Assembly (NCBI GenBank): GCA_963737065.1
Contig: CAVTRC010000001.1
Coordinates: forward strand, 2,336,001 to 2,400,000
Length of the DNA: 64,000 nucleotides
Direction of reading: 5' to 3'
Origin: Candidatus Eremiobacteria bacterium
GTDB taxonomy: Bacteria; Vulcanimicrobiota; Vulcanimicrobiia; Vulcanimicrobiales; Vulcanimicrobiaceae
Shown here: one piece after another, positions 24,001 to 27,000 of the stretch
How positions within the stretch are numbered: the stretch's first letter is position 1
Layout: every line of letters begins with the position of its first letter
Program-made: the position numbers

Positions 24001-27000
24001 AATACTTCAACGATGCCGCACGCGCCGCGATTGCATGGACGCAGAACGTGCTCAACGAGGAAAGCCGAGATTGGCTCAACGGCCTCTCGTACGAACTGCG
24101 CTACCCGGAATTTTTGCTCGTGCACGGTGCGCCGGTGAATTATTTCGAGTACATTCTCGACAAACGGACGGCCGCGCGCGCATTCGCGAACACGGATGCT
24201 CCGCTCATCTTTGTCGGGCACACACATATTGCGGAGTATTGGGTCCAAGAACCCGACGGAAGCATCGGCCATAAACACATGCAACACGGCGGCGAATTAC
24301 AGCTGCAAGATGGCCGCCGCTATATCGTCGACGTCGGAAGCATCGGCCAGCCGCGCGATCTCAATCCCGAAGCGTCCTTCGCGATGTACGACAGCGCGAC
24401 ACGGCGCGTGGAATGGGTGCGCTTTCCCTATCCGATCGCCGAAGTGCAAGAGAAGATTCATCACGCGCACTTGCCGGATTATCTCGCAACGCGTCTGGAG
24501 TCCGGGCGGTGAGCGTGCCGGTCGACGACGGTCATTGCTTTGCGTGCGGCCCGGAGAACCCGATCGGTTTGCACCTGCACTTCGACCCCGACAACGACGG
24601 CGTGCACGCGCGCATTACGCTTCCGCCACAATTCCAAGGCTGGCGCGATATCGCGCACGGCGGCATCGCGATGTCGCTGCTCGACGAAGCGATGGCGCAT
24701 GCCGCCGGTCACGCCGGCCACCGCGGCGTCACGGCAAGCATAAACGTACGTTTTCGAAAGCCCGTACCGCTCGGCAAAGAACTGCGGATTACCGGTCGCG
24801 TCACCTGGCAACGTCGCAACGTGCTCGGCATGGAAGCCGCCGTCTGCGATGATTCCGGCACCGTACTCCTCGACGGCGACGGAAAATTCGTGTCGATGGG
24901 CTCCGTAGAAGCCGTAAACGACCGAAGAAATCCCAGCGCGACGAAGTCCCGCTAGCAACATGGCGACGACACAAGAGATGTTTAGGCGCGCCCTAGGGGC
25001 GAGTATTGCTTTCCAAAACCTGTCGCGCGCCATGGTCCGGGGGCCCCACGAAGTGGGGGGTGCGCAGGCTAGGCCGGAGCACCTTTCAAATGGCTAAATC
25101 CAAACAGACGCGACTTCAAGCGAAAGAAGAAACGAAGAAGCATAACGCGCCGGCGGTTGATAATCGGCGTGCGCGGCACGAGTACCACATCCTCGATTCG
25201 GTCGAAGCCGGGCTGGCATTGACGGGAACGGAAGTGAAGTCGATTCGTCAGGGCGGCGTGAGCTTGAATGAAGCGTATGCGCGCTTTCGCGACGGCGAAG
25301 CGTGGCTGCTCGGCATGCACGTGCCGTCGTACAAACAGGGCAGCTTTTCCAACGTCGATCCCAATCGCCCGCGCAAATTGCTGTTGCACAAAGGACAAAT
25401 CAACGACTTACAGTCGCGCGTGAAAGAGAAGGGGCTGACGATCGTGCCGCTGCGGATGTATTTCACGCGTGGCAAAGTGAAGGTGCAACTGGGACTCGCG
25501 CGCGGCAAAAAGATGTGGGACAAACGCGAAGACATCGCCAAACGCGACGTCGAACGCGAAATCCAACGCCATGCGAGGGGCTAAACCGGAAGCGGCGATC
25601 GAGCAGAGCGTCGAGCGCGACGGGATCGTTCGCAAAGGGGATCGCGTCGTCGTTGCGTGCAGCGGCGGCGCCGATTCGGTTGCACTAGCAGCGGCGCTGT
25701 GCGCCGTGCGCGCGCCAATGGCACTCCAACTCACGCTCGCGTATGTCAACCACGGCACGCGCGAGTCGGCGTGGCAAGACGAGTGCGTCGCGCTGCGGAT
25801 CGGCGCAACATTCGGCATTCCTGTTCGCGTCGTGCCGCTCTCCGGCGATCGGTGTGATGAGGCATCGCTGCGGAAGGCACGCTACGAGGCGCTGCTCGAC
25901 ATCGCGCGCGACGTCCGTGCGAACGTCGTTGCAACCGCGCATCATCAAGAGGATCAAAGCGAGACGGTGATGCTTGCACTGTTGCGCGGCACCGGGCCCG
26001 GTGGGATGGTGGGCATGCGTCCGCGCCGCGAAATGGCGCCGGGCATTGAACTTGCGCGTCCACTGCTGCGCATGGCTTCCCACGAGCTACGCCACTATTG
26101 CCACGTTCATGCATTGCCGTACGCGGTCGACCCGACGAATGCCGACCTCGGCTTACGCCGAAACGCCGTTCGCCAAGCGCTTGAAGCGCTTCGTCCGTAT
26201 TTCCCCGCTCTCGATGCTGCCGTCGCGCGCACCGCCGAACTGCTCGGCGAAGAGGCCGAGCGAACCGGCCGCGCGGCATTGCGCCGGCGCGTTCGCGACG
26301 CTCTCGACACGGAACAGGCGCTGCGTGACGTCGATTTTCAGCACGTCGAAGCCGCCGTACGCGCGTTGGAACGCGGCCGCTCCGGGCGCTTTCATATGAG
26401 GACCGGCATTGAAGTAGAAATCGCAGGCGGCAAGATTATCGTTAGAAAGGCGCAGTGAAGACGACGGATTCCTACGACGCAGCAATCGAGCGGGCGCTCT
26501 TCACCGCAGAGGAAATCGCCGGCGCACTCGCGCGTCTCGCGAAGCAGATCGCGGACGACTACCGCGGGCAACCGTTGACCCTGGTCGGCGTGTTGAAAGG
26601 AGCGCTCTATGTCGTCACCGACCTCGCGCGTGCGCTCGCCGCGATTCCGGACGGCCCGAGCGAAATCATCGTGGACTACATCTGCGTTTCCAGCTACGGG
26701 AATTCTACGCGTTCGTCGGGCGAGGTTCGTATGCTCAAGGACGTGAGTGAGCCCATGACCGGCCGCAACGTCGTGATCGTCGAGGACATCGTGGATAACG
26801 GCCTCACGTTGCAGTACCTCCGGTCGTTACTCGAAGAGCGGAGGCCGGCACGCCTGCGAGCCTGCGTCCTCTTCAACAAGCCCTACCACCGGCGTGTCGA
26901 CGTCCCGATCGACTATATCGGCCTACAATCTCCTGACGAATTCGTCGTAGGTTACGGTTTGGACTACCAGGAACTGTTCCGGAACCTGCCCTACCTGGCA

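Follow-up and report, generated by a model that had tools for sequence, protein, structure and literature searches.

A ~160-nt Structured Repeat Lodged at Start Codons as a Probable Translation-Initiation Leader in a Family of Uncultured Soil Bacteria

In a family of uncultured soil bacteria (the Baltobacteraceae-like family f1 of the Eremiobacterota/Vulcanimicrobiota), a structured interspersed repeat of ~160 nt adjoins the start codons of numerous housekeeping genes that are unrelated to one another, most of its copies ending in a Shine-Dalgarno (SD) sequence and a spacer that appear to serve the gene downstream. We consider the best reading, to which we give a probability of roughly 55%, to be that of an intercistronic repeat resembling the interspersed repetitive units of mycobacteria (MIRUs; reportedly the subject of Supply et al. 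1997) that is now in charge of translation initiation in the downstream gene. The copy from which we start lies before smpB. The window is the whole 64,000-nt stretch of the genome (G000) that was analyzed, and all coordinates given below are positions in it, on the forward strand.

A Repeat between a Thioesterase Gene and smpB

The element occupies 24934..25089 (~156 nt, for a family unit of ~160 nt; cmsearch). The covariance-model match at smpB covers 24934-25093 (154.9 bits, E 1.6e-43), and both nhmmer and BLAST find further copies of the repeat elsewhere in the same genome. The genome-wide survey's note had described a 137-nt repeat at 24959..25095; its presence is borne out, but its 5′ end lies ~25 nt further upstream. 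The repeat fills the entire gap between the stop codon of a 4HBT-type thioesterase gene (24413..24955 in the ORF list; Pfam 4HBT, E 2.5e-14) and the ATG at 25090 of the gene that it serves, smpB (25090..25584; SsrA-binding protein; NCBIfam SmpB, E 1.2e-62), and the final codons and TAG stop of the thioesterase (24953-24955) fall within the element's 5′ box region. All other junctions of the operon in the window are overlaps, and the element occupies the sole gap. A scan of 24700-25300 found no sigma-70-like promoter and a single terminator-like match, at shuffle level. Searching positions 24000-26000 against Rfam (cmscan, E<=10) gave only two chance-level matches, both elsewhere in that stretch, and full-text literature searches found no published description of the element.

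From 5′ to 3′, the smpB copy begins with a box, AGCGCGACGAAGTCCCG (24935..24951; family consensus tGCtCGaCGnnGTCCCG), that is conserved in sequence across the alignments and unpaired. Hairpin P1 follows (24985..25031), in which GGCGCGC (24985-24991) pairs with GCGCGCC (25025-25031), enclosing CCTAGGGG (24992-24999), which is conserved, and a loop that varies. A G-run and hairpin 3 come next (25039..25060), with CCCCAC (25044-25049) and GTGGGG (25053-25058) on either side of a GAA loop. The SD hairpin (25062..25083) carries GGAG at 25076-25079, of which GGA forms an internal loop while the next GC(A/G)CC is paired. An A/U-rich spacer (25084..25089), TTTCAA here and TTTAAA in the family consensus, stands directly 5′ of the start codon.

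Copies in the Genome and the Family

The covariance model finds 11 full copies in G000, together with partial ones. The earlier count was 14 copies; the model gives 16 matches at E<=1.1e-5 and, with the limit relaxed to E<=0.01, 21. What had been taken for a patchy spread over 13 genomes becomes matches in 88 of 151 family genomes (80/143 without the eight of the 88 positive genomes that are unpublished). Within a sample of the whole phylum, 34/70 genomes of family f1 are positive, and the element was found in none of 80 genomes from 20 other families. Inverted, tandem and partial 3′ modules all occur. Two-copy tandem arrays are present before gcvPA and ribF in G000, and also at L124 and L150; no longer arrays were seen.

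Start Regions Supplied by the Repeat

Position was assessed on 100 aligned copies from 30 genomes. A GGAGCGC-like SD is present in 92 of them, and in 57 an ORF of at least 60 codons opens 13-17 nt past the first G of GGAG, the distance being 14 nt in 34 copies and 15 nt in 16. Reducing the ORF limit to 35 codons and permitting CTG places 61/100 copies at a start. In these 57-61 copies the element ends 9-10 nt before the start codon, and supplies GGAG and the A/U-rich spacer. We searched 41 of the 61 downstream proteins against profiles, leaving out repeated orthologs; 32 of the 41 match NCBIfam families, mostly from profile position 1-10. The products include CheA, SmpB, PolA, PurC, FliG, SMC, RpiB, Map, RbfA, AtpA, AtpD, GcvPA, DnaN, NuoG, L14, L22 and L36, and the genes cover translation, replication, energy, motility and biosynthesis. 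Recurrent hosts in several genera are cheA, smpB, gcvPA, rpiB, purC, fliG, rbfA and ribF. On the 5′ side, an upstream same-strand frame ends between -52 and +26 nt of the 5′ box in 47/62 copies (a crude ORF test). For ~30% of copies there is no adjoining start codon and no clear link to one.

All six gene starts in G000 that were already on record (smpB, rbfA, cheA, gcvPA, an ABC exporter and g02099) are confirmed, and rpiB is a seventh, with a copy that lacks hairpin 3. A further copy had been put 37 nt before ribF; it in fact adjoins the ancestral start, which is CTG in G000 and ATG in the congener G114, so that the 37-nt offset is a gene-caller effect. Because of the ORF placement in 57/100 copies, the N-terminal profile alignments and the differing native sequence of empty sites (see below), the survey's proposal that the 3′ end of the element provides the SD, the spacer and, in many cases, all or part of the start codon is supported by these comparisons.

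A second route to the start codon would run through the element itself. MIRU-type coupling would have the ribosome translate a short internal frame and, on terminating at the start (ATGA, TAAAATG), pass on to the downstream gene. Across copies, 49/54 have a frame that is open through the element, with its stop between -10 and +8 nt relative to the start, mainly as ATGA in 29 copies (frame 1) or as TAA/TGA at -4 in 15. The window has such a frame of 45 codons (24960..25097; ORF list), which begins 4 nt past the thioesterase stop and whose TAA end overlaps smpB codons 2-3; it is probably not a gene. At nuoG of G137, a frame likewise runs from the displaced old ATG to TAAAATG. When the phase is artificially shifted by 1 or 2 nt, however, 46/54 and 35/54 through-frames are still left, so that the signal is mostly one of GC-richness and an A-rich 3′ end. 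The distance from CCCTAGGGG to the start ranges from -87 to -127 (mostly -97 to -108) and occupies all three phases. We found no conserved start codon ('ATG' lies 5′ of P1 in 5/9 G000 copies checked), and a protein-coding small-gene test across copies found no conserved reading frame or peptide, as is also indicated by loop-length differences that are not multiples of three. With an SD of its own in the element as well, coupling of this kind is very improbable. Another idea, that stops in all three frames mark the 5′ end, was rejected, since most copies keep one frame open throughout.

Three Covarying Hairpins

The 24 pairs, 8 of them compensatory, that had been reported for the repeat were reproduced by RNAalifold on 11 own copies. 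In an alignment of 100 copies, which was fitted to the model, 94.0% of cells pair (86.2% in shuffles), 17/24 pairs show changes in both partners, and covariation scores 0.222 (0.090 in shuffles). Each of these three measures was matched by 0/500 shuffles, and slid controls pair <=63%. The description of the element as structure-keeping thus stands on compensatory change. The seven pairs of P1, which are also the top mutual-information pairs, are formed in 99.3% of cells, 6/7 changing on both sides. Hairpin 3 has six pairs (97.1% paired), and its closing C-G becomes U-A in 7 copies. Helices 4-6 of the SD hairpin are 98%-100% paired, the apical pair being C-G in 58 copies, with 38 others having G-C. 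A single-sequence fold is not more stable than its shuffles (z -0.25); the structure is supported by covariation only. G:U pairs number 17 and A:C mismatches 11 in a strand test, so that the structure is not assignable to a sense-strand RNA as opposed to DNA; transcription of the element and action as RNA are what we infer. For GGA, the predicted unpaired probabilities (means over 61 copies) are 0.64, 0.69 and 0.48, dropping to 0.09-0.22 over the five bases that follow; the SD is half-exposed in predicted ensembles.

These features bring to mind a leader RNA controlled in trans, an operator or sensor for a protein, small RNA, metabolite or temperature whose SD hairpin would open and close; it would tune a growth-related gene set, and would have spread because genes come under that control. 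Riboswitches and ribosomal-protein leaders are likewise structured 5′ leaders whose conserved motifs include unpaired ones and whose SD lies in a terminal helix, here the last one, as in riboswitch expression platforms. The same genes carry the element in several genera, and ~78/160 positions are conserved in orthologs, unpaired motifs included. In contrast to those leaders, the element has no Rfam match, spans many pathways, and at one and the same gene may be there, missing or inverted among close relatives. Its genes form a mixed set that changes from congener to congener, as with the rbfA and gcvPA copies of G000; inverted, tandem and partial 3′ copies exist; and the z of -0.25 gives the fold no advantage over shuffles. 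The mutual-information scan gives three serial hairpins only, with neither a mutually exclusive alternative helix nor a covarying long-range partner for the 5′ box. We regard a trans-controlled leader as unlikely, though deserving of some weight.

Age and Constraint of Resident Copies

Same-locus copies in different genomes are more alike than paralogs within a genome (identity 0.719 versus 0.663). The nearest neighbor is an ortholog in 18/30 copies and a same-genome paralog in 0/30, and the top identity between within-genome paralogous copies is 0.786 across all sampled genomes. Family-conserved columns are 0.86-0.97 identical between orthologs; the figures are 0.30-0.75 for variable columns and 0.40-0.69 for third codon positions of the neighboring gene, the two kinds of site drifting alike. 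In orthologs across genera, ~78/160 positions are conserved like codon positions 1+2, and these take in the unpaired motifs (5′ box, CCTAGGGGA and GAA loop). Identity between orthologs is 0.71-0.83 in the 5′ box and 0.86-0.89 in the G-run and hairpin 3. At gcvPA, G000, G108 and G133 have copies with one and the same truncated 5′ junction. By these sequence comparisons, many copies are old orthologs under purifying selection, without a recent burst. Dependence on the SD cannot be the sole constraint, as a forward (G000) and an inverted (G133) exporter copy both keep the core.

Insertion, Turnover and Orientation

Empty sites show what the element displaced. In a comparison of 80 smpB orthologous loci, relatives without it have a thioesterase with another ending, which runs into or abuts the smpB start (ATGGCTAA, TAATG). 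In congeners, infB meets rbfA, and gcvH meets gcvPA, in a TAGTG overlap; three same-genus genomes lack the copies that G000 has at rbfA and gcvPA. At nuoG of G137, the element lies 11 nt inside the gene, the old ATG remains upstream, and the NuoG N-terminus is new (MAD instead of MNRP). The native initiation regions at the empty sites of congeners differ from the element sequence, which has taken their place. Filled and empty congener sites, read against each other, show insertion into TAGTG/TAATG stop-start overlaps or first codons. Junctions vary from site to site, and no target duplication was found in filled/empty pairs at nuoG, map, gatB, gcvPA and rbfA. Insertion may be aimed at start codons, beyond what filtering by selection would leave there.

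Congeners differ in the presence, absence and orientation of copies. At least six copies adjoin real start codons in inverted orientation, GGAG facing away from the gene and so unable to serve it (PheT, two ABC exporters, LptF/G, SmpB in G145 and an NTP-transferase), and their model scores are as high as those of forward copies. Both orientations occur at the same start codons for smpB, an ABC exporter and the NTP-transferase. At the ABC exporter, the variable regions of a forward-inverted pair show reciprocal best similarity (0.71, in the top 0.7% of pairs), and the forward copy of G000 and the inverted copy of G133 appear to be one lineage; the same start in G137 holds a second, unrelated lineage. 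Mobility, as claimed earlier, is upheld as turnover over evolutionary time (differences in presence, absence and orientation; two exporter lineages) but not as recent movement, given a maximum paralog identity of 0.79 and the 0/30 above. It is doubtful, in our judgment, that the element is a domesticated mobile cis-regulatory RNA or flippable ribosome-binding-site cassette, which would place dozens of housekeeping genes per genome under shared translational control, be kept throughout the history of the family, and be turned off by in-place inversion.

Along contig C1 of G000, 12/13 loci follow the leading strand, for a leading-strand gene-bias proxy of 0.52-0.60. An orientation that follows replication, suggestive in G000, is not upheld in G145, where orientations are mixed and the inverted smpB copy runs along the lagging strand (origin inferred from dnaN).

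What Might Have Moved the Element

The repeat could instead be selfish or invertible at the level of DNA: a recombinase would recognize single-stranded or cruciform hairpins and move or flip the element, and SD supply would be a side effect that lets start-codon insertions survive. Several of the observations above suit such an agent, namely both orientations at the same start codons with equal model scores, the linked forward and inverted exporter copies (0.71) beside the unrelated lineage in G137, the precise-looking TAGTG empty sites in congeners, the want of a G:U over A:C bias (17 versus 11), and the leading-strand placement of 12/13 C1 loci in G000. The C(GAA)G loop also resembles a motif of very stable DNA mini-hairpins.

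The search for the agent itself runs the other way. Y1 (RAYT/IS200-type) transposases (PF01797) were found neither in G000 nor in three congeners; they occur in 7/151 family genomes, one of the seven unpublished, without correlation with the element. Beside the ribF copies of G000 are a frameshifted IS110 gene, which abuts the distal copy, and an IS481-like gene. No homologs of the four G000 transposases tested (three IS110-type and one IS481-type) flank 90 other copies, other IS110 loci of G000 have no match to the element model, and IS110 ends are unlike those of the element. We judge this neighborhood incidental. There are no terminal inverted repeats, the element's ends being tGCtCGaCG... 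and ...GGAGCGCCTTTAAA with a subterminal GYYCCG/CGGRRC resemblance only, and no target duplications. Near-identical paralogs are absent from sampled genomes (maximum 0.786), resident orthologs stay conserved, contrary to what selfish selection predicts, and G145 has mixed orientations with its inverted smpB copy on the lagging strand. A selfish or invertible DNA-level repeat hence appears improbable. A separate idea, that the variable regions act as guide RNAs, was rejected, as their matches to their own flanks are no closer than to shuffled ones.

Comparison with Known Repeats

MIRU units measure 40-100 bp and often form longer tandem arrays; they have no known transposase. Our element resembles them in lying between operon genes, co-oriented with them and adjoining a start codon, with gene expression surviving in the MIRU case, in its capacity for tandem copies (the two-copy arrays before gcvPA and ribF), and in that a transposase was not found here either. 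It differs in its length (~160 nt), three covarying hairpins, own SD, lack of a conserved ORF, and occurrence in another phylum. The likeness is one of placement and description. According to a review, MIRUs 'insert themselves at start codons', affect expression little, and act via an internal ORF coupled at -4 nt (PMC12548453).

Other families of repeats are less close in form. Like the GC-rich, hairpin-forming intergenic repeats of the REP/BIME/REPIN type, the element shows orientation bias and long persistence; REPs are transcribed within operons. REPs are palindromes of 20-40 nt, usually 3′ of stop codons and serviced by a Y1 transposase, unlike this long composite that ends at start codons in a family where Y1 genes are present in 7/151 genomes and not in G000. 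MITE-type repeats (ERIC/IRU, Neisseria Correia, pneumococcal BOX/RUP) are described, in part in PMC3049150, as small, non-coding and co-transcribed with genes, some of them creating new starts or 5′ adducts to operons. ERIC, Correia, BOX and RUP have terminal inverted repeats, target duplications, either orientation and varied intergenic positions, whereas this element has no terminal inverted repeat or duplication and ~60% of its copies stand at a fixed distance from the start codon.

A Resident Repeat as Proposed Leader

The MIRU-like reading would have a family-specific interspersed repeat of ~160 nt lodge just 5′ of start codons, mostly at tight stop-start junctions within operons, and, once resident, become the intercistronic leader of the downstream gene. 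The 5′ end would close or follow the upstream reading frame, three stable hairpins would hold the insert folded upon itself, and the 3′ end would present GGAG in an internal loop, with the start codon following after 9-10 nt of A/U-rich spacer. Translation of the gene downstream, in most cases a housekeeping gene, would then begin on element sequence instead of at the native site that was displaced. Unfolded, the G/C-rich arms would mask the SD; because genes would depend on the element and its unfolding would hide this site, resident copies would come under purifying selection and compensatory change, as we propose.

Several observations sit poorly with this reading. No enzyme or end signature was found that would explain arrival at start codons, and the model gives no role to the conserved 5′ box, CCTAGGGG and GAA loop. 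At least six inverted copies lie at real starts, and ~30% of copies are away from starts altogether.

If the MIRU-like reading holds, genes for ribosomal proteins, ATP synthase, replication, the tmRNA system and chemotaxis all take their translation start region from one structured repeat of 160 nt. This would apply to over half of the genomes sampled in the family, the phylum being one that is known largely through metagenome assemblies. The element flags true start codons, for instance the CTG of G000 ribF, and gene callers and ribosome-binding-site models for these genomes should account for it. It is a natural candidate for an insulated, portable ribosome-binding module, and lends itself to asking in what way DNA can be targeted to start codons. 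As the copies are old and under purifying selection, a repeat can assume the role of an essential signal and then be fixed there, which is more than is known to have been described for MIRUs.

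Anatomy of the repeat at smpB

The repeat at the smpB locus is present where the genome-wide survey's note had placed it, and alignment of the copies puts its 5' end ~25 nt further upstream than that note did. It opens with a conserved, unpaired 5' box (AGCGCGACGAAGTCCCG, window 24935–24951), which here holds the thioesterase stop codon and is followed by a variable stretch. Next come hairpin P1 (GGCGCGC/GCGCGCC), enclosing the conserved CCTAGGGG and a variable loop, a G-run with hairpin 3 (CCCCAC-GAA-GTGGGG), and a Shine-Dalgarno (SD) hairpin whose GGAG lies within an internal loop; at the 3' end are an A/U-rich spacer and the start codon. 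The 4HBT-type thioesterase gene (24413–24955, + strand) and smpB (ATG at 25090, + strand) are separated by 134 nt from stop to ATG, the sole gap in a tight operon whose remaining junctions are all overlaps. The gene order is aminotransferase, metallophosphoesterase, thioesterase, smpB, PP-loop (TilS-like) protein and Hpt, all on the + strand; the operon formed by these six genes, tightly packed through stop–start overlaps, spans 22693–27033. Because the listed thioesterase ORF (ATG at 24413) reaches 100 nt into the preceding gene, its true start is probably further downstream. Rfam gave no match at this element and, folded as a single sequence, it was no more stable than shuffles (z −0.25).

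BLAST, nhmmer and R1, a covariance model built from 11 copies in the genome under study (G000), found 11 full and several partial copies there (16 matches at E<=1.1e-5, 21 at E<=0.01). Two-copy tandem arrays lie 5' of gcvPA and ribF, some copies are the 3' module alone, and the rpiB copy lacks hairpin 3. Two tandem pairs on contig C1 (C1:2054369–2054512 and C1:2064377–2064582) consist only of the 3' module (hairpin 3 plus SD hairpin), and a 221-codon frame begins where one of these pairs ends; P1 and the 5' box are thus dispensable for the occurrence of the module.

Covariation and predicted presentation of the SD

The 24 pairs, eight of them compensatory, that the survey had reported were reproduced with RNAalifold on G000's own copies. 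In A3, an alignment that was fitted to the model and comprises 100 copies drawn from 30 genomes, 94.0% of pairing cells pair (86.2% in shuffles), 17/24 pairs change on both sides, and the covariation score is 0.222 (0.090 in shuffles); none of 500 shuffles reached any of these values. Sliding the partners by 1–3 columns lowers pairing to 31–63%. A mutual-information scan recovers the three serial hairpins only and assigns the 5' box no partner. Averaged over the predicted ensembles of 61 copies, the bases of the SD GGA are unpaired with probabilities of 0.64, 0.69 and 0.48, the next five are paired (unpaired probability 0.09–0.22), and the spacer and start codon are moderately accessible. On these predictions a stable hairpin would present the SD in its loop, partway between concealment and free access. 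A leader RNA regulated in trans would be compatible with such a fold, and we consider it an unlikely reading. G:U pairs (17) are not clearly commoner than A:C mismatches (11), and the constraint therefore cannot be assigned to sense-strand RNA as against DNA.

Junctions with coding sequences

A GGAGCGC-like SD is found in 92 of the 100 aligned copies, and in 57 a start codon opening at least 60 codons lies 13–17 nt after its first G (34 at 14 nt, 16 at 15 nt). Lowering the limit to 35 codons and admitting CTG raises the count to 61, two of which (copies L131 and L104) are doubtful. When 41 of the 61 proteins, repeated orthologs left out, were searched against NCBIfam, 32 matched, usually from profile position 1–10, which supports the element-adjacent start codons. 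The matched proteins are CheA, SmpB, PolA, PurC, FliG, SMC, LeuA-like, RpiB, HolA, Map, RbfA, AtpA, AtpD, IlvE, GcvPA, DnaN, NuoG, RibF, L14, L22, L36, ArgR, BCCP, CcsB, DivIVA and ThiO. The survey's proposal that the repeat ends in the SD and start codon of unrelated genes is confirmed and extended. For RibF of G000, a CTG stands right at the element's end (L007:529–531, C1:2421885). In congener G114 this codon is ATG, and the alignment to the RibF profile begins with it. The CTG appears to be the true ribF start, which the gene caller has probably misplaced by 37 nt in the downstream direction. On the other side, an upstream same-strand frame ends −52 to +26 nt from the 5' box in 47/62 copies by a crude ORF test.

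Distribution, filled sites and empty sites

At E<=1e-5, R1 matches 88/151 genomes of the family, corresponding to 57/96 high-quality genomes and 47/78 genera; eight of the 88 are unpublished (G028, G120, G134, G021, G029, G142, G019, G096), and without these the figure is 80/143. There are at least about 658 matches over the family genomes, and many genomes have at least 19 scored candidates. A sample across the phylum, Eremiobacterota/Vulcanimicrobiota, gave 34/70 genomes of this Baltobacteraceae-like family (f1) and 0/80 from 20 other families. The restriction to one family that the survey had noted holds; within the family the element is common rather than rare.

Among 80 smpB loci, a full element precedes smpB in two (L045 and L073), with partial elements at L020 (without P1), L039 (3' module only) and L017 (5' box only). 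Of ten further loci read by eye, nine lack it; their junctions are native ones, for instance ATGGCTAA or TAATG overlaps. At the tenth, L015 from a related MAG, an unrelated MITE occupies the same spot; this small repeat (L015:1340–1500), with terminal inverted repeats (TGTCATCCTGAGCGC...GCGCTCAGGATGACA), fills the thioesterase–smpB junction, a site that at least two unrelated repeats have entered. A 27–30-nt insert (CCTTCGAC...GCTCAGGRCAG) lying between hairpin 3 and the SD hairpin in some copies (L006:400–440, L008 and the distal gcvPA copy in L005; G000 C1:2414800, 183450 and 946780) resembles one arm of this MITE and may stem from a second repeat family inserting into the element.

Other sites are filled in some congeners and empty in others. 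The infB–rbfA junction is a TAGTG overlap in congeners G114 and G073; congener G137 has a 67-nt palindromic insert there (GCGGGCG...CGCCCGC; L195, G137:C20:34155–34221) instead of the element, and its rbfA starts at TTG. Between gcvH and gcvPA, G073 and G114 have a TAGTG overlap and G137 has TAG-gacc-GTG. In nuoG of G137 the element lies 11 nt inside the gene, leaving the old ATG upstream and changing the N-terminus from MNRP to MAD; G000 has a clean empty site. At map of G137 the element stands in place of adk's last five codons and a TAATG overlap, and in gatB of G114 it replaces the first eight codons. Junctions vary between sites, and neither target duplications nor terminal inverted repeats were seen at the filled and empty sites compared.

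Age and selection

Between genomes, copies that share a locus are 0.719 identical (n=41), compared with 0.663 within one genome (n=256, maximum 0.786) and 0.638 for other pairs. In 18/30 cases a copy has its ortholog as closest relative, and in 0/30 a same-genome paralog. The gcvPA copies of G000, G108 and G133 are truncated at their 5' junction in the same way, which speaks for one ancient insertion. Between orthologs, the ~78 family-conserved columns are 0.86–0.97 identical, as against 0.30–0.75 for variable columns and 0.40–0.69 for third codon positions of the adjacent gene. By part, in cross-genus to same-genus comparisons, identities are 0.91–0.98 (P1 arms), 0.85/0.84 (CCTAGGGGA), 0.86–0.89 (hairpin 3), 0.88/0.87 (SD hairpin) and 0.71–0.83 (5' box). 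Purifying selection has therefore maintained the core at its resident loci, and neutral positions have diverged around it. The pattern is not that of a selfish element in recent expansion.

Inverted copies and the search for a means of movement

Some copies without a downstream gene have a real gene on the opposite strand, its start codon touching the element's 5' end 10–15 nt from GTCCCG. These genes encode PheT (L099), an ABC exporter (L102 in G137, L143 in G133), LptF/G (L131), SmpB (L136 in G145) and an NTP-transferase (L146); at smpB, the ABC exporter and the NTP-transferase other genomes carry the element forward. At the ABC exporter, the variable region of the forward G000 copy has its best match in the inverted G133 copy and vice versa (0.71, within the top 0.7% of all pairs); the two look like one lineage flipped in place. 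The inverted G137 copy is closest to one at another locus (L125, 0.75), the start codon site is empty in G073 and G114, and this copy seems to have arrived at that start codon independently. Just upstream of the G000 copy lies a second, solitary 5'-box-like sequence, GGCGAAGTCCCAG (L004:230–300, C1:877290–877360), which could be what is left of an earlier copy or of a flip here. Start codons thus act like favoured insertion points whichever way the element faces. Selection alone hardly accounts for this, and it argues that the conservation is not wholly in the service of the SD.

Such flips and landings would fit an element that moves or inverts as DNA, a reading we regard as quite improbable. 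Y1 transposases occur in 7/151 family genomes (one, G051, unpublished) and in none of G000's genus, and the four IS110- and IS481-type transposases of G000 that were tested have no homologs in the flanks of 90 copies. Guide-like targeting was rejected: variable regions match their own flanks no better than chance.

Outside the window, truB and ribF are separated by a 4.2-kb insertion (L185:3900–8120, G000 C1:2417400–2421620) with genes for a hexapeptide-repeat transferase, an IS481-like integrase and a frameshifted IS110-family transposase. Each edge of the insertion bears the same ~55-nt piece of the element, hairpin 3 with a loop of ACGTCGT. The distal ribF copy begins directly where the IS110 ORF stops; the placement of this IS110 gene appears incidental.

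On C1, 12/13 loci are oriented along the leading strand, which is suggestive; cumulative GC skew has its minimum near 1.6 Mb, with a small amplitude (about 0.01–0.02), and the origin likely lies there. Orientations in G145 are mixed if its origin is placed, by inference, at dnaN.

Relation to known repeats

Membership in REP/RAYT elements, MITEs, IS110 ends, riboswitches or small genes failed in each case on a tested defining feature, and full-text literature searches found no description of the element. Among described repeats the nearest is the mycobacterial MIRU, which resembles it in place, orientation, tandem copies and absence of a known transposase; according to a review (PMC12548453), MIRUs insert at start codons and affect expression little. 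It differs from MIRU in size, in its three covarying hairpins, in its own SD and in lacking a convincing coupled ORF; a through-frame ends at the start in 49/54 copies, and in 46/54 and 35/54 after artificial phase shifts. With a probability of roughly 55%, we read the element as an intercistronic repeat of MIRU type that has supplanted the native translation initiation of many housekeeping genes and that selection now maintains.
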